Shown here: positions 19,214 to 24,550 of the stretch, one piece after another
Numbering within the stretch: position 1 is the first letter of the stretch
Layout of the letters: every line of letters begins with the position of its first letter
IMG/VR virus record: IMGVR_UViG_3300021400_000206
Span: 1,615-65,614 of that record
Direction: 5' to 3' (one strand)
From: a virus
DNA: 64,000 nt
Made by a program: the position numbers and the translations under genes
The notes under the pieces: generated by a model
Seen by the model: only the letters and a program-made list of their open reading frames with translations
Database searches by the model: none
What the model was told of the DNA's origin: nothing

Positions 19214-20095
19214 CTACTTCATTAACCGCTCACGAAGGGCCGACTTTACAGCCTCTCCATAGAGCGTGTAATTGTTCTCGCATTCATTGTCATTCACACA
19301 TACCACCTGCAGATTTTCATCAAGCAGGGTGGCACGTACCTCATCAACGCTCTTTCTGACACCGACGTACTTTCTGCATGGGGTGCGGTCCACGTAATTC
19401 CCGGAAAGGTAATGCCACCAAGGACAGAGCCACTGATTATAGTTCTTTACCTGCCGGAATGGAGTGATGGTCCGCTTCATCTTGAAATAATTATTCTCCC
19501 ACAGCCTTTCCCATGTACTCTTGAGCATGGGAGTGAGGCTGTGCCCGCCTTTGAGCCATGTATCTGTATAATGTTTACCGAATTGGCTTGCGATGAAGTT
19601 GAGGCCGTTTCTTGCTGCAAAATGGAAGTCGTTAGGATCGTCGGGGAACGGTCTCTCAGTGTAGTGCAGACATGGAACCATTCCCTCGAAGAAATCCGTC
19701 TCCTTCAACTCTGACACAGGGAACATATCATCGTTCCCATAGATGAATCTCTCGCTAAGACCGGGAATCTTATACATGTAGAGCTCAATAGCCCTGCTGT
19801 TGAAGGTGGGAAGGAACTCATCAGGCATAAAATCCTTATGGTAGACGATGTTTACACCTTCCTCATCCATCCAATCCTGCTTCTGACTCTCCATAGCAAG
19901 TATGACGAAAATCCTGTCTACGAACGGCATGAATTTCTTGATACACTGAATGAGGAGATGTTCTGTTCCCCAGCTGCGATAACGGACAAATTCGTATGGA
20001 TTGCTCTCATCGAACACCCTGTTACGCTTGATGAAACTCGACTGCCACTCTACATCGTCATGAAAGACCATTGGCACTACGTAGTCTATTCCCAT
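19214..20095 (-). CDS. Stealth-family hexose-1-phosphate transferase
   Basis: CR1 IDYVVPMV, CR2 RYRS...KFMPFVDRIF...HKDFMP..LPTFNSRAIE..YKIPGLSERFIYGNDDMF, CR3 H.LTP, CR4 CVND. Start taken at MGIDY. Confidence 0.88.
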   Translation of the reverse strand: MGIDYVVPMVFHDDVEWQSSFIKRNRVFDESNPYEFVRYRSWGTEHLLIQCIKKFMPFVDRIFVILAMESQKQDWMDEEGVNIVYHKDFMPDEFLPTFNSRAIELYMYKIPGLSERFIYGNDDMFPVSELKETDFFEGMVPCLHYTERPFPDDPNDFHFAARNGLNFIASQFGKHYTDTWLKGGHSLTPMLKSTWERLWENNYFKMKRTITPFRQVKNYNQWLCPWWHYLSGNYVDRTPCRKYVGVRKSVDEVRATLLDENLQVVCVNDNECENNYTLYGEAVKSALRERLMK

Positions 20096-20778
20096 AATTT
20101 CTTGTTCTGATTCAACCATTCATTAATCTTCTTCGGCTTCCAGCTTCCGTGTCTCAGGTGCAGGCAATAGTCCTTGTTTTCGATCTCCATGTAAGGAAGG
20201 CCAAGACGAAGCACCTCCTCCAGGAACCACGCGCCGGTGTCATAATGACTGTCGGGGGCGTTGCTAACAAGATTCCACATCTTCGCACCGTTGAAATAGC
20301 TGAATCCGTATTGGCGCATCATCTTCACGTTGATATAGCAGAGCCATGGCTCTACGCGGTTTACTACATAACCGAACCTGCGAGTGTTGCAACTAATGCG
20401 GCCAACGAAAGCCTTATCGCTGTCCCAAAGGCTTGCGATATCCTCTTTCAGGAGAATATCTCCATCCATCAACACGAACGGATTCTTGCGATGGTCCACG
20501 ATCCACTGAACAGAAAAGCAATGCTTTGCGCTGCCGTAGTTATTACCGGGCGACGGCTCCTTATCTTTGAACGTCTTGAGCCATTTGTCGAAATCGATAA
20601 TCTGACCTTTGGTATTGTCGATTACCTCAACATTGTCAAAAGTGTTCACGAATGGACGGGCATCGCTATTGTCAAACACAATGACATGACAACCCTCCGT
20701 GGTCTTATTCAGAGACTTGATTGCCGCTGATGTCAACTCCGGTGTGTTGTAATGTACGATTACTACGTCTTTTTTCAT
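20086..20778 (-). CDS. Glycosyltransferase family 2-like (GT-A fold)
   Basis: VVIVHYNT, VIVFDNSD, DxD motif LMDGDIL, late HLRHGSW. Confidence 0.82.
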   Translation of the reverse strand: MKKDVVIVHYNTPELTSAAIKSLNKTTEGCHVIVFDNSDARPFVNTFDNVEVIDNTKGQIIDFDKWLKTFKDKEPSPGNNYGSAKHCFSVQWIVDHRKNPFVLMDGDILLKEDIASLWDSDKAFVGRISCNTRRFGYVVNRVEPWLCYINVKMMRQYGFSYFNGAKMWNLVSNAPDSHYDTGAWFLEEVLRLGLPYMEIENKDYCLHLRHGSWKPKKINEWLNQNKKLWE

Positions 20779-20796
20779 AACTGTACTTCTGATAAA

Positions 20797-20830
20797 TAAA
20801 AAGGGGCAAGCGGATTGTCCGCCGCCCCCG
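20797..20830 (-). terminator. Intrinsic terminator after tail tube gene
   Basis: On minus strand GGGGCGGCGGAC-AAT-CCGCTTGCCCC followed by TTTTT. Confidence 0.65.
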
Positions 20831-20850
20831 GTTTCAGTTATTCACGTTGG

Positions 20851-22435: not shown

Positions 22436-22794
22436 CCTTCGTTGAAGTTTCTGTTCAGTTCGCCGTAGATGACCGTTCGGCCATTATCCGGCTCCCAATC
22501 CTTAACTTCCCATTCCTCGGTAATTTCACCCTTTATTGCTATAAGAATATCTCCGGATTTCGGTGTGAGACCTTCCCATTCGCTGAACTTGACAGGAATA
22601 CTCGCCTTACGTTTGTTCTCTTGAACCTTCGCATCTCCGGTAGTAGTTGTATCTGTATAGCTTCGGCCTTTTCCCTCATATACGATGTGCTCCGTAAGAG
22701 GTCCACTTTCGTACCTCCCCGGCAACTCTCTCCGTACTATCTTGATAGTATGAGGGTATGGCGGATTAAAGACCTTGTTCTTCCTCATAATCAT
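22432..22794 (-). CDS. Putative head closure protein
   Basis: Synteny; about 120 aa, beta-rich. Confidence 0.6.
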   Translation of the reverse strand: MIMRKNKVFNPPYPHTIKIVRRELPGRYESGPLTEHIVYEGKGRSYTDTTTTGDAKVQENKRKASIPVKFSEWEGLTPKSGDILIAIKGEITEEWEVKDWEPDNGRTVIYGELNRNFNEG

Positions 22795-23222
22795 TCAATA
22801 TGTGGAAGCGGGATTCCTGCCTCATCGTAGTCGCAGGGTGTGATCCCGAAGCTGCTAATTGTAACGCTGACGGAGTCATCATACAGGAACTCCTCGCCAT
22901 ACTTCTCGTAGACCGCCTTTACATAGACGAGCATTCGGTCTTTGTCATCATCCGTTAAGGTGTAGCCGCCCTCGGAATGTTCCCATCCGTTATCACTGTC
23001 AGAGGTGGCTCCAACACGACTCGGGCCCATGCATATCCAAACATACAAATCAGCCTTCAAAAGTCGTTTTGTTCGCTCATCGAGGTCTTCCTCGCGGGTG
23101 TCATTGGCTACTTCGCGCTCACCAAGCACGTAATCAACGGCTTCCTGGGGTAAAGCAAAGTTCACACAGCCGAAGAGATAATCCTCAGCCGTGCGAATCT
23201 TTGTTTCATTTCCATTTACCAT
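22791..23222 (-). CDS. Putative head-tail adaptor
   Basis: Directly downstream of the capsid gene. Confidence 0.6.
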   Translation of the reverse strand: MVNGNETKIRTAEDYLFGCVNFALPQEAVDYVLGEREVANDTREEDLDERTKRLLKADLYVWICMGPSRVGATSDSDNGWEHSEGGYTLTDDDKDRMLVYVKAVYEKYGEEFLYDDSVSVTISSFGITPCDYDEAGIPLPHIE

Positions 23223-23251
23223 ATTTTACAATGACTTATGGTGAATACTAC

Positions 23252-24550
23252 TTACTCTCCCTCAGAACTTGAGCTTGAGCTTGAGGTTGCACTTGAGCTT
23301 GAGCTCGTTGGTGCAGGAGCTGAACTTGAGCTGGAGCTCGACGCGCCCATCACACTCAGGTAGTAGAACCAGCGAGTAGCGTTTGGAACACAGAGAGTCT
23401 GAGACTCAGACTTGGTCTTGATTGTCATGTGCTCACCATCGCGAATCTCACGGATCAGAGTGCGACCGCCATCGAACAGAGCAGAACGGGTGTTACCGCT
23501 GTCAATCCAAATTGGCTTACCACTCTGAACGCTACCGATAGCACCATCGGGCACGAATGACAAGACTCCCTCGGGGAAGGCCTGCATGTTGTGATATGCA
23601 ACCTTTCTGGTCTTGGGGTTGAGGAACTCAACAGAGCCAACGGCATCGATAACATCGATGCGACCACCAAACTTCTTAACGATGTAATTCCAAATCACAT
23701 CGTCGTCCTGGGTGTTCGACCAAGCGACACGCAGAGTGTCGTCAGTAATGTCAGGACGCTGTGCGGTTGCGAACATCACTCTCCAATAAGGCATCTCAAG
23801 CAGATCCTCCTTGGTGCGCTCAGAGCACTCCCAGTGGCCGGCAGGCATGAAGTCGTTGTCCTTTGCATTGCGCATGATCTTCTTCGCCTCCTTCTCGGGG
23901 AAGATGGTCTTGCCGATTGCAGGATTCTGAACAATGGTGCCGTCCTCTTTCTTGGTGTACCATACACTGGTATGCTTGTTCGCGCTGGGAACGCCGAAGT
24001 CGATCTCTACGGGCAGACCGTAAGGGTTGTTCTTGGCGTTGATGATGAGCTTACCGAAGTTACCCACAATCTGATGACGCTGGAACTGAACGGTGTTGAA
24101 GTTACCACCAATCAGGCTGTCTACAGAAGTGAAGAAGAGGTCCATCACGGCATCAACGATGTCAGAGGTCATTCCGCCCAACGCCTCGGTGAGAGCCATC
24201 TTGTCGCGAATCTTCTTGCGGTCGAGGTAAACCTCGTGCTTGAAGATTGGCAACTCACCGCTCTTGAGCAACATTCCGTCAGTGCTCTTTGTAGCACCGT
24301 CAGAGTCGTAGTCGGTGTAGGTGGCCATGGTGTAAGGACGAATGGTAGCCTCAATCTGCTCGTAAGTAGGATGAAGCTTGATGTCTGGATCAAGAGGGAA
24401 TCCCATCTGAGCGTAGGTACGCTCGGCATTCCACTTATCAGCCAACATGTCGTTGAGATACATGCTAAGACTGGCTACACCATTCTCAACATATCCCATC
24501 GAAGCCAAACCCTGGCCGATAAAATCATAAAACTGTGCGTCTCGTATCAT
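23252..24550 (-). CDS. Major capsid protein with Ser-rich C-terminal tail
   Basis: 432 aa after scaffold and decoration genes; GELP, IDFGVP motifs; high-expression codon bias; ends ASSSSSSSAPAPTSSSSSATSSSSSSSEGE. Confidence 0.88.
   Translation of the reverse strand: MIRDAQFYDFIGQGLASMGYVENGVASLSMYLNDMLADKWNAERTYAQMGFPLDPDIKLHPTYEQIEATIRPYTMATYTDYDSDGATKSTDGMLLKSGELPIFKHEVYLDRKKIRDKMALTEALGGMTSDIVDAVMDLFFTSVDSLIGGNFNTVQFQRHQIVGNFGKLIINAKNNPYGLPVEIDFGVPSANKHTSVWYTKKEDGTIVQNPAIGKTIFPEKEAKKIMRNAKDNDFMPAGHWECSERTKEDLLEMPYWRVMFATAQRPDITDDTLRVAWSNTQDDDVIWNYIVKKFGGRIDVIDAVGSVEFLNPKTRKVAYHNMQAFPEGVLSFVPDGAIGSVQSGKPIWIDSGNTRSALFDGGRTLIREIRDGEHMTIKTKSESQTLCVPNATRWFYYLSVMGASSSSSSSAPAPTSSSSSATSSSSSSSEGE

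Follow-up and report, generated by a model that had tools for sequence, protein, structure and literature searches.

Capsid and tail-tube subunits of mycobacteriophages are glycosylated at their C-termini by phage glycosyltransferases, according to passages in two papers that cite Freeman 2023 (PMC11600133, PMC12619734); the examples of virion O-glycosylation quoted from that work include Che8, Corndog, Myrna and cluster O phages (Freeman et al. 2023, Cell Host Microbe 31:1216). The locus analysed here, from an uncultured phage of gut or rumen source, has in common with what those passages describe phage-encoded sugar transferases, capsid and tail-tube C-termini as their (here putative) targets and a cassette that varies between phages. 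At the gene level, this phage encodes both enzymes and C-terminal Ser tails, and the two vary together among relatives. The two systems differ in host, as mycobacteriophages infect Actinobacteria whereas the host of this phage is probably a member of the Bacteroidota, plausibly of the Bacteroidales. They also differ in the placement of the enzyme genes, here within the tail operon in the gap between tube and chaperone genes, and in the candidate acceptor, here an explicit, mostly acid-ended poly-Ser tag known from its gene. Because one of the enzymes is a predicted Stealth hexose-1-phosphate transferase, the phage locus further implies a phosphodiester, which is absent from the passages citing Freeman 2023.

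Stealth enzymes transfer a sugar-1-phosphate from a nucleotide sugar to form a phosphodiester, and the acceptors given in the relevant excerpts are sugar hydroxyls, not proteins (PMC5974469), which counts against a protein tail as acceptor. [quoted passage not shown] Capsule chains and N-glycan mannose serve known Stealth enzymes as acceptors, whereas the phage enzyme would use the tail of a virion protein or a sugar attached to it. Stealth proteins of Dictyostelium have been named as candidate enzymes by Sperisen et al., and the paper on the SP96 system does not identify the genes responsible for the Ser-linked sugar-1-phosphate. As described there, the SP96 system carries sugar-1-phosphate on Ser, as one possible order of action would here, and its second sugar comes from a glycosyltransferase, which would match the phage set of a Stealth enzyme plus a glycosyltransferase. 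That system is eukaryotic and based in the secretory pathway, unlike the phage set, and the phage Stealth enzyme could act in either of two orders, of which direct use of Ser is one.

Gram-positive bacteria have soluble glycosyltransferases dedicated to glycosylating the Ser-rich stretches of serine-rich repeat adhesins in the cytoplasm, and some of these enzymes have a GT-A (GT8-like) fold. The phage locus resembles this pathway in pairing Ser-rich stretches with a soluble GT-A-fold enzyme, and GlyE (5gvw) is among the fold matches of that enzyme. The adhesin substrates, by contrast, are long internal repeats of secreted proteins, and the pathway is not known to involve a Stealth enzyme and is not phage-encoded. 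Our literature search found no paper describing cassettes of the phage type.

Two sugar-transferase genes between tail tube and chaperone

All genes of the module lie on the minus strand of the window, the 64,000-nt stretch of DNA that we analysed. The series begins with the gene for the 432-aa major capsid protein (23252–24550), whose product matches the phrog_29 major head protein family (E = 4.3e-14, residues 65–199 only) and is 50% identical over 93% of its length to the annotated capsid of Dulem virus 40. No solved structure was related to it by sequence, and this family match predicts a major capsid protein of the HK97-fold type. Four head–tail connector or completion genes follow (21469–23222; 139, 181, 120 and 143 aa), the 181-aa product having a weak HK97-gp10-like match.

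The next gene (20851–21432; 193 aa) encodes the tail tube protein, identified by fold. Its AlphaFold2 model (pLDDT 76, with a low-confidence C-terminal block) aligned in VIA to the tube proteins of phages Chi (Z = 9.4; rmsd 3.5 over 124 residues), YSD1 (9.0) and Bxb1 (8.9) and to lambda gpV (6.7), and nearly all of the best 50 rows of that search were proteins of tail tubes or of Hcp-type tubes; Foldseek alone gave a weak signal (best E = 2e-3). Together with its position 5′ of the chaperone and tape measure genes, the modelled fold points to a siphophage tail tube with a Tube/Hcp β-sandwich. Downstream of the enzyme genes lie a probable tail assembly chaperone (18746–19210; 154 aa), a probable second chaperone segment, also a tentative assignment (18468–18674; 68 aa), and the 1,915-aa tape measure protein (12702–18449), which was assigned by size and position and is homologous to long proteins 3′ of the chaperone in relatives. 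The 154-aa protein had no HMM match; it was assigned from its place between tube and tape measure and from homologues lying directly 3′ of the tube in enzyme-free relatives. In one relative (L008), a single ORF (5451–6206) matches both the 154-aa and the 68-aa proteins, so that the chaperone segments are joined there. An earlier note on this DNA had placed both enzyme genes between tube and chaperone, which it called normally adjacent. The ORFs bear this out, and tube and chaperone genes are direct neighbours in all five enzyme-free relatives whose maps were read (L001, L002, L042, L069 and L075).

The gene nearest the chaperone (19214–20119) encodes the Stealth-family protein. Its longest ORF spans 301 aa, and an ATG at 20095, the probable start, gives 293 aa; this ATG aligns with the starts of homologues and overlaps the stop of the preceding enzyme gene by 10 nt, in agreement with the overlap and start first proposed. 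Residues 46–145 match positions 1–101 of the 108 in Pfam Stealth_CR2 (PF11380; E = 6.2e-26, 91.1 bits against a cut-off of 39.4), and a profile of 24 homologous sequences aligned over the full length of CpsY (8j2n; E = 1.3e-35) and also matched GNPTAB (7s6n; E = 1e-30). D12, R46, N129-D130-D131, H193, R222 and N276-D277 are invariant in the 24 homologues. In the family description, CR1 is an N-terminal IDVVYTF or very similar motif, CR2 the most conserved region (~100 residues), CR3 a less conserved region of ~50 residues and CR4 a CLND or CIND tetrapeptide (Sperisen 2005). The phage protein has a CR1-like IDYVVPMV at residues 11–18 (D12, P16 and V18 invariant in the 24 homologues), which the profile search aligned to DIDMVFSWV of CpsY, and a CR4 motif, CVND, at residues 274–277 (N276 and D277 invariant, C274 nearly so); the CR3 region, with the invariant His193, was aligned to CpsY in the same search. 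The Pfam models for CR1, CR3 and CR4 gave no match even at E ≤ 10, although a more distant viral homologue (L031) had a borderline CR4 match (26.3 bits, just below the 27.4-bit cut-off). The claim of a Stealth protein with CR1–CR4 thus stood by Pfam for CR2 and by motif for CR1 and CR4, with a putative CR3 placed by alignment; the Pfam models were silent for these three. We predict a Stealth-family hexose-1-phosphate transferase reduced to a minimal catalytic domain.

The preceding gene (20086–20778; 230 aa), here called GTx, had been described as GT2-like with a DxD motif. Its AlphaFold2 model (pLDDT 86, pTM 0.88) had 197 PDB matches at E ≤ 0.001 in Foldseek, with a TM score of ~0.55, and the matches listed included LARGE1, SpsA, GT8 and GlyE (E = 3e-6 to 3e-5). 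The DxD residues D105 and D107 and F35-D36-N37-S38, within the motif FDNSD, are invariant in 16 homologues. No Pfam family matched above its cut-off, the best being DUF6734 (0.018) and GT8 (0.023). We rejected an assignment to Pfam GT2: PF00535 (Glycos_transf_2) fell short of its gathering score, with no match to GTx at E ≤ 10 and none in a six-frame search of the record. The DxD part of the description therefore survives on the fold model and the invariant aspartates, and the GT2 label does not. GTx has 295 unnamed homologues, a few of which, among the 120 listed, carry PF01501, and 13–20% of members of its Atlas clusters carry PF00535. By its model, GTx has a single Rossmann-like GT-A fold, and we assign it as a glycosyltransferase of an unnamed phage-specific family.

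The cassette varies among relatives. Eight contigs (L015–L019, L023, L024 and L033) encode a single Stealth–GTx fusion of ~740 aa, and in others the same site gains DUF4422, GT2 and phosphoribosyltransferase-like modules, as would be expected of a glycan-building cassette.

Ser tails and their association with the enzymes

The capsid protein ends in ASSSSSSSAPAPTSSSSSATSSSSSSSEGE, a Ser-rich tail of 30 residues (403–432; encoded at ~23255–23344), and the tube in ESSSSSSGE (20854–20880). Capsid homologues at 74–78% identity stop at ...YYLNIMG, exactly where the Ser tail starts, and the last block of the tube model is of low confidence; the tails are pure appendages. The window holds 322 ORFs of 50 aa or more in its six frames, and only three of them have a run of at least four Ser in their last seven residues: those of capsid and tube and one of 57 aa inside the span of ORF 30398–30991, on the strand opposite to it. 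The poly-Ser ends reported for capsid and tube are therefore found on no other real gene of the window, including the four connector or completion genes. Homologues of the 143-aa connector-region protein are Ser-tailed in L010/L013 and L070; virion proteins other than capsid and tube have these tails in no phages but those with the enzymes. An acidic residue follows the last Ser in 28 of 35 distinct tails. The end signatures of capsid and tube match within most phages, as in SGE/SEGE here, SSSSGD/SSSSGD in L070 and SASS/SASS in L026.

To what extent the tails follow the enzymes was assessed in 48 evaluable related viral contigs, of which 25 are enzyme-free, 16 carry both enzymes and 7 carry Stealth alone. 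Physical linkage could inflate co-inheritance of the enzymes with the tube tail, and less so with the capsid tail, because the enzyme genes lie within the structural operon. Tube tails occur in 0/25 enzyme-free contigs and in 16/16 contigs with both enzymes, and capsid tails in 0/22 and 14/15, respectively; tails are present in two of the seven Stealth-only contigs. The co-occurrence that the earlier note proposed to look for is thus present, and it holds after correction for relatedness. Tails and enzymes each changed ~9–11 times on the tube and capsid trees; seven independent pairs on the tube tree were concordant in 6–7 cases and discordant in none, and ten on the capsid tree were concordant in eight and discordant in none (p = 0.0078). 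The Stealth tree has a single change of tail status, with separate long-branch Stealth lineages in tail-less phages.

These counts bear on the idea that the tails are flexible hydrophilic brushes, unmodified or phosphorylated by a kinase, and that they came to be associated with the enzymes through shared ecology or recombination hot spots. The capsid C-terminus does behave as a hot spot for additions, as enzyme-free relatives carry a non-Ser extension of ~55–65 aa there instead, and slippage could expand the tails, whose codons alternate between AGC and TCA. The absence of both tails from all evaluable enzyme-free relatives and of any discordant contrast, together with the lack of a kinase among the ORFs scanned, leaves this account with hardly any probability in our judgement.

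There are exceptions to this coupling. All invariant Stealth residues are kept in five Stealth-only contigs that are tail-less (L021, L022, L025, L057 and L058), and a complete record of 108 kb (G003) encodes Stealth at the tube site and a GTx-containing 524-aa protein ~12 kb away but has no tails. In contig L016, which encodes both enzymes, the tube is tailed and the capsid is not. Among 52 new GTx loci, 26 have no Stealth gene within 9 kb, and 24 of these show no Ser-tailed ORF; one of the two exceptions is an incomplete contig (L148) and the other probably a spurious ORF (L122). In L134 and L142, GTx lies directly 3′ of a tube-like gene that has no tail. Six of the 26 new loci with both enzymes (L103–L105, L107, L137 and L146) lack a terminal run of at least three Ser, and the contigs of L103, L104 and L107 also bear weaker ends such as ...DSDSSI and ...ESDSSN. 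Two contigs (L060 and L061) have tails with Stealth and no GTx.

Tail-less phages with Stealth alone or GTx alone imply that each enzyme can have another target. This would suit enzymes that act away from the virion, on host surface polysaccharide (in lysogenic conversion or superinfection exclusion) or on phage DNA, with the tails as unrelated low-complexity sequence travelling with the structural module. Capsule polymerases are known among Stealth enzymes, the phage has two integrase-family genes, and linkage is expected where enzymes and tube gene share an operon. Yet the capsid gene is five genes from the enzyme genes and tailed capsid lineages are mutually only 24–26% identical, and the tails still track the enzymes in eight of ten capsid contrasts with none opposite, their ends matched between capsid and tube within most phages. 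The enzymes are encoded in the late structural operon and not near integrase or replication genes; neither enzyme has an evident membrane anchor or signal sequence at its N-terminus as read by eye, and the scanned ORFs revealed no gene for a flippase, a ligase or a lipid carrier. We regard off-virion targets as very unlikely to account for the cassette.

The loci with one enzyme also speak to a division of labour in which the tails bear an ordinary O-glycan, added by GTx or a host enzyme as in mycobacteriophages, and Stealth makes a separate product with no phosphodiester on the protein. The sole phage precedent demonstrated by experiment, in the passages available, uses glycosyltransferases and a methyltransferase, and GT-A enzymes that modify Ser-rich proteins exist, as the structural match to GlyE illustrates. 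Against it, no evaluable locus has tails without Stealth, as seen in the enzyme-free contigs and the GTx-only loci, whereas L060 and L061 have them without GTx; the single change of tail status on the Stealth tree and the Stealth–GTx fusion in several lineages point the same way. We consider this division unlikely.

A candidate phosphoglycan coat

Because Ser tails and transferases go together among relatives, with no opposite contrasts, comparative genomics supports the earlier proposal that the phage coats its own particle through these tails. Given the gene identities, folds and tail co-variation, we think it likely that the phage's own enzymes place a glycan or phosphoglycan on the Ser tails of capsid and tube.

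Late in infection, two soluble enzymes would be made from the tail operon, probably in lower amounts than the tube protein because their genes lie 3′ of a terminator-like hairpin and T run between the tube stop and GTx (20798–20827, minus strand; a pattern match from a consensus scan and sequence reading). Their cytoplasmic targets would be the putative acceptors, the disordered poly-Ser C-termini of capsid and tube. Stealth would transfer sugar-1-phosphate from a nucleotide sugar to form a phosphodiester, and GTx, as a DxD-type glycosyltransferase, would form a glycosidic bond; Ser could be glycosylated first or phosphoglycosylated directly. The joint product on the Ser hydroxyls may be a short phosphate-containing glycan or an alternating chain of sugar and sugar-phosphate. 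The scan of the 20 larger ORFs turned up no gene for nucleotide-sugar synthesis; the sugar donors would therefore have to come from host pools. Head and tail would then bear an anionic sugar coat, which may serve in shielding, solubility or adhesion; the benefits suggested in the earlier note were shielding from immunity or proteases and an interaction with mucus. If this reading is correct, the phage would sugar-coat its virion by a chemistry not yet described for phages.

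The tail-operon cassette and its two enzymes

The source record is linear, 65,614 bp long and estimated to be 79% complete (CheckV), and the window comprises its bases 1615-65614. On the minus strand, a scaffold-like protein assigned by position (25087-25785) and a 144-aa protein (24573-25007) precede the 432-aa major capsid protein (23252-24550), four small connector genes (21469-23222) and the 193-aa tube protein (20851-21432). These are followed by a 230-aa GT-A-fold glycosyltransferase, here GTx (20086-20778), a 301-aa ORF of the Stealth family of hexose-1-phosphate transferases (19214-20119), two genes that are chaperone-like by position and relatives (18746-19210 and 18468-18674) and the 1915-aa tape measure (12702-18449); the 144-aa, connector and tape-measure genes are taken from the ORF map. 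The terminase (PF03237) and a portal-sized gene, assigned by Pfam and by size (26017-29378), lie opposite to the structural operon, with a homing-endonuclease-like gene (NUMOD1/NUMOD4; 29422-30489, plus strand) immediately after the portal-sized gene. Elsewhere, the gene at 61-2811 (plus strand) encodes a 916-aa product with Peptidase_S74 (endosialidase chaperone) as its C-terminal domain; this product is probably a tail fibre or spike that cleaves itself. Two integrase-family genes with Phage_integrase and Phage_int_SAM_5 domains are convergent (48654-49583, plus; 49936-51384, minus), and a temperate lifestyle is probable. The features from which an earlier note had proposed virion phosphoglycosylation by a GT2 and a Stealth enzyme acting on poly-Ser tails are present in the sequence as described.

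GTx had no above-threshold match in Pfam, NCBIfam or PHROGs, and its profile found no relative by sequence in the PDB. Its structural model adopts a GT-A fold (pLDDT 86, pTM 0.88), with LARGE1, SpsA, a GT8 protein, COLGALT1 and GlyE as the nearest structures (E 3e-6 to 3e-5, TM ~0.55), and FDNSD with D105-x-D107 is invariant across 16 homologues. The label 'GT2-like with DxD' therefore holds for the DxD motif and, in the model, for the fold, but not for membership of Pfam GT2. All 295 database relatives are unnamed, a few of them having PF01501, and the atlas places GTx next to clusters of viral proteins, some of which are fusions with GT92, TOD1 or DUF4422 domains. GT-A enzymes with a DxD motif form glycosidic bonds.

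Pfam detected Stealth_CR2 alone in the second enzyme (E 6e-26), and neither NCBIfam nor PHROGs gave a match. A profile of 24 homologues nonetheless spans the whole of the solved Mycobacterium tuberculosis CpsY (8j2n; E 1.3e-35, profile 2-286 against chain 2-298) and has a further match in the catalytic domain of GNPTAB (E 1e-30). Of the four regions CR1-CR4 that had been attributed to this protein, the family-defining motifs (Sperisen et al. 2005, PMC1285062) are recognisable for CR1 (IDYVVPMV), CR2 (with GNDDM) and CR4 (CVND), and D12, R46, N129-D130-D131, H193, R222 and N276-D277 are invariant in the 24 homologues. Stealth enzymes are described as hexose-1-phosphate transferases that build phosphodiester-linked polymers (PMC1285062, PMC5974469).

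The Stealth homologues begin at the ninth codon of the ORF, an ATG at 20095 that overlaps the GTx stop codon, which suggests translational coupling of the pair. A GC-rich hairpin and the T run after it (20798-20827, minus strand), lying between the stop codon of the tube gene and GTx, are terminator-like by pattern match only; they would attenuate transcription of the enzyme, chaperone and tape-measure genes, and this would fit enzymes expressed at a lower level than the tube. Read by eye, the N-termini of Stealth and GTx show no evident signal sequence or membrane anchor. The predicted complex of the two enzymes scored 0.01 against a mark of 0.32, which we counted neither for nor against binding.

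Serine-rich ends of the capsid and tube proteins

The capsid protein matches the phrog_29 major head protein (E 4e-14) and shares 50% identity with the capsid annotated in Dulem virus 40 and 25% with its counterpart in a Bacteroides LoVEphage; a sequence search of the PDB returned low-complexity noise only. The tube protein had no HMM match in Pfam, NCBIfam or PHROGs, and its AlphaFold model (pLDDT 76) gave a weak Foldseek match (best E 2e-3). Structural alignment with VIA-align related the model to the tubes of phage Chi (Z 9.4), YSD1 (9.0), Bxb1 (8.9) and lambda gpV (6.7), and the best 50 rows were tail-tube or Hcp-type tube proteins nearly throughout.

The capsid ends in ASSSSSSSAPAPTSSSSSATSSSSSSSEGE and the tube in ESSSSSSGE. 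The window has 322 ORFs of 50 aa or more across the six frames, and only three of them have at least four consecutive Ser in their last seven residues: the capsid, the tube and a 57-aa ORF on the strand opposite to the ORF at 30398-30991. The Ser runs (23255-23344 and 20854-20880, minus strand) are encoded by alternating AGC, TCA and AGT codons in an AGCTCA-like hexamer repeat rather than by a single codon, an arrangement by which a tail may grow or shrink by two Ser per step.

Capsid homologues with 74-78% identity end at ...YYLNIMG, exactly where the Ser tail starts, or bear another extension; the tail is thus an appendage on a C-terminus that tolerates add-ons. At this same site, capsids of enzyme-free relatives (L004:8001-9395, L003, L079, L081-L083, L085, L086, L088 and L089; L numbers denote loci from related viral contigs) carry a non-Ser extension of ~55-65 residues with repeated G-W-Y-V / T-Y-Y motifs, ending for example in ...PYEQGWYVKEGDTYRQATDTTPIAGVTYYVKS. 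It could represent a small domain for decoration or binding, and the C-terminus of the capsid seems to serve generally as a site where surface add-ons dock.

Association of tails and enzymes among relatives

GenBank phages gave no match to the 6.7-kb region by megablast or to the Stealth protein by tblastn, and the comparison therefore rests on uncultivated viral contigs, to which two GenBank phages were added. Locus scans returned 6 loci with the capsid as query, 32 with Stealth, 54 with GTx, and 30 and 32 with tube sub-alignments A4 and A5, respectively. Setting aside ten loci that duplicated counted contigs and tube ORFs that were incomplete or short left 65 contigs whose tube gene was complete. 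We could evaluate 48 of them, which had at least 2.5 kb 3' of the tube gene or both enzymes in view. The other 17 had <2.5 kb downstream of the tube; they include three with Ser tails (L020, L049 and L062) and one with a partial Stealth and no tails (L037). A tube was scored as tailed if it ended in SS followed by 0-2 residues, and a capsid if it ended in a run of three or more Ser.

The earlier note's proposed comparison of tails with transferases came out in its favour. In the 16 contigs with both Stealth and GTx, tails were found on every tube (16/16) and on 14 of 15 capsids (the exception being L016); in the 25 contigs with neither enzyme, no tube (0/25) and no capsid (0/22) had one. The closest GTx relative, L102 (67% identity), has an adjoining Stealth gene, a tube ending in ...GSSSSN and a capsid ending in ...SSSSQSSQSSQSSE. 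The counts include near-identical members (L010/L013, L021/L022, L057/L058, L060/L061, L095-L097 and L004/L089), for which tree-based tests served as the control.

As kin share traits, these trees were built with the tails trimmed off. On the tube tree (48 rows), tail status changes nine times, GTx nine and Stealth ten; across seven independent pairs on well-supported branches, the tail changed with the enzyme in 6-7 and against it in none (median sign-test p 0.03). The capsid tree (44 rows, L102 included) gave ten independent pairs, eight concordant, none opposite and two unchanged (p 0.0078). The genomes are mosaic: the tube of the window is nearest to that of L068-L071, its capsid to the L004/L006 group, and tail-bearing capsid lineages are mutually only 24-26% identical. 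Inheritance of tube, tail and enzymes as a single block is unlikely to be the whole cause: the capsid tree tests the association without recourse to the tube gene, and the two proteins of the window differ in their nearest relatives.

Several loci argue against a simple coupling of tails to either enzyme. Among the seven contigs with Stealth alone, only L060 and L061 have tailed tubes (2/7) and, where the capsid gene is in the locus, tailed capsids (2/6); the five without tails encode Stealths that retain every invariant residue. A complete 108-kb related record, G003, has a 388-aa Stealth between its tube and tape-measure genes (L101:4002-5168); GTx is part of a 524-aa protein encoded ~12 kb from it, counted across the ends of the record, beside portal- and terminase-sized genes (L100:7958-9532), and neither capsid nor tube has a Ser tail. 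By our reading, half of the new GTx loci (26/52) lack Stealth within 9 kb, and in 24 of these 26 no ORF of 120 aa or more bears a Ser tail; of the exceptions, L148 is on a contig that ends inside the GT gene, and L122 has an opposite-strand ORF that is probably spurious. L134 and L142 have a tube-like gene without a tail and GTx directly 3' of it. Tails were present in 20 of the 26 GTx loci with both enzymes and absent from L103-L105, L107, L137 and L146; the contigs of L103, L104 and L107 carry weaker Ser ends (for example, ...DSDSSI). Each enzyme family thus also has tag-free uses, to judge from the untailed Stealth-only, GTx-only and G003 loci. GTx as the enzyme that requires a tail was rejected on the same GTx-only loci and on L060/L061, which are tailed without GTx.

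On the Stealth tree (23 rows), tail status is a single change, with weakly supported deep nodes. The tail-less L021/L022/L025 and L057/L058 form separate long-branch Stealth lineages, and the tailed, Stealth-only L060/L061 fall with the window in one well-supported clade. The tag would then appear to go with the enzyme pair, or with one Stealth subtype.

The capsid and tube of the same phage have matching tail ends in most cases (SEGE/SGE in the window, SSSSGD twice in L070, SASS twice in L026), and an acidic residue follows the last Ser in 28 of 35 distinct tails. Additional tagged virion proteins, such as a small protein after the capsid (L010/L013, L070), were found only in enzyme-bearing phages. 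A conserved protein of ~177 aa with a Ser-run end (...SSSSSSSD) immediately follows Stealth in L009:7131-7664, L011:8898-9431, L012:8878-9408 and L139:3267-3800, and may be a third tagged virion protein; these four phages order their tail genes differently, the tape measure being encoded on the other strand. The window represents the minimal two-enzyme form of the cassette. Elsewhere, Stealth and GTx are fused through an intervening DUF4422 domain into a protein of ~740 aa (L015-L019, L023, L024 and L033), and other relatives have GT2 or phosphoribosyltransferase-like genes inserted at the site. One such gene, encoding 286-299 aa with a weak phosphoribosyltransferase-domain match, lies between the GT and Stealth genes (L012:7136-7996, L027:10427-11326) and hints at a ribose-phosphate or other non-hexose glycan component in those phages.

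In MAG contigs of ~100-kb phages (L154, L156, L158 and L161), a Stealth and GT cassette follows a ~2300-2500-aa protein ending ...SYDTGKK...; after the cassette come genes the size of a terminase and a portal, and a protein of capsid size whose end is acidic and rich in Ser. From this gene order, the cassette has moved between very different phage architectures.

A model for virion modification and its implications

The co-variation of tails and enzymes supports the interpretation of the cassette as a virion-coating system, with the corrections made here. In the best-supported model, both enzymes would work in the cytoplasm, modifying the Ser tails of capsid and tube subunits during or after assembly and leaving a phosphate-containing glycan on them. 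We hold with good confidence that the tails carry some enzyme-dependent glycan, and consider it probable that the enzymes place one that contains phosphate. GTx could add the first sugar to Ser, with Stealth then transferring sugar-1-phosphate onto that sugar; alternatively, Stealth would transfer sugar-1-phosphate onto Ser, and GTx would cap or extend it. We lean slightly towards Stealth acting first, as no evaluable locus has tails without Stealth, tail status tracks the Stealth tree, and in L060/L061 tails occur despite the lack of a detectable GT (no GTx, GT2 or GT8 was detected in the 51-kb record of L061, which is 59% complete). GlcNAc-1-P-Ser and Fuc-GlcNAc-1-P-Ser, described in Dictyostelium, parallel this Stealth-first order. 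Direct protein phosphoglycosylation, in which Stealth moves sugar-1-phosphate straight onto the Ser hydroxyls of the tail, is a more tentative proposal that we hold to be less likely than not. To our knowledge, such modification of proteins has so far been described only from protists, Dictyostelium among them.

A Bacteroidales host is plausible. The nearest named phages have Bacteroides or Phocaeicola hosts or come from lemur gut, and Stealth relatives with 37-45% identity, paired with GTx, lie on rumen MAG contigs titled Bacteroidaceae or Prevotellaceae; in L156, Stealth and GTx lie upstream of a 427-aa protein ending in ...SSESSASSD.

We know of virion glycosylation by phage-encoded enzymes as shown only for a few mycobacteriophages, the closest system to this one. 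There, phage glycosyltransferases are reported to modify capsid and tube, with glycans at the C-termini (PMC11600133, PMC12619734), and the modification has been linked to weaker neutralising-antibody responses (PMC11600133). The logic would be common to both, but the putative system here differs in its probable host phylum, its gene position, its explicit poly-Ser tag and its Stealth enzyme, which implies a phosphodiester. The full-text literature, as far as its searchable excerpts extend, contained no description of Stealth in a phage structural operon or of glycosylated Bacteroides phage capsids; in those excerpts, 'Stealth protein' together with phage mostly denotes H-NS-like plasmid proteins.

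Collectively, this locus and its many relatives suggest that coating of the particle is widespread among Bacteroidota phages of the gut and rumen, has repeatedly been acquired and lost, and uses a different chemistry, a phosphodiester-linked sugar on an acceptor tag that can be read from sequence. In annotation, a poly-Ser tag at the C-terminus of capsid and tube proteins would serve as a marker of modified virions. As a pair of small soluble enzymes with a short tag at the C-terminus, the system is testable, and it could reveal the kind of enzyme long sought for Ser phosphoglycosylation. If direct phosphoglycosylation were true, this would be the first such system in prokaryotes or viruses and the first identified enzyme-and-tag pair, and a minimal tag (SSSS with an acidic end) could prove portable together with one or two small soluble enzymes. 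The coating could also account for surface properties of abundant gut phages, including charge, interactions with mucus or polysaccharide, and resistance to proteases or antibodies.
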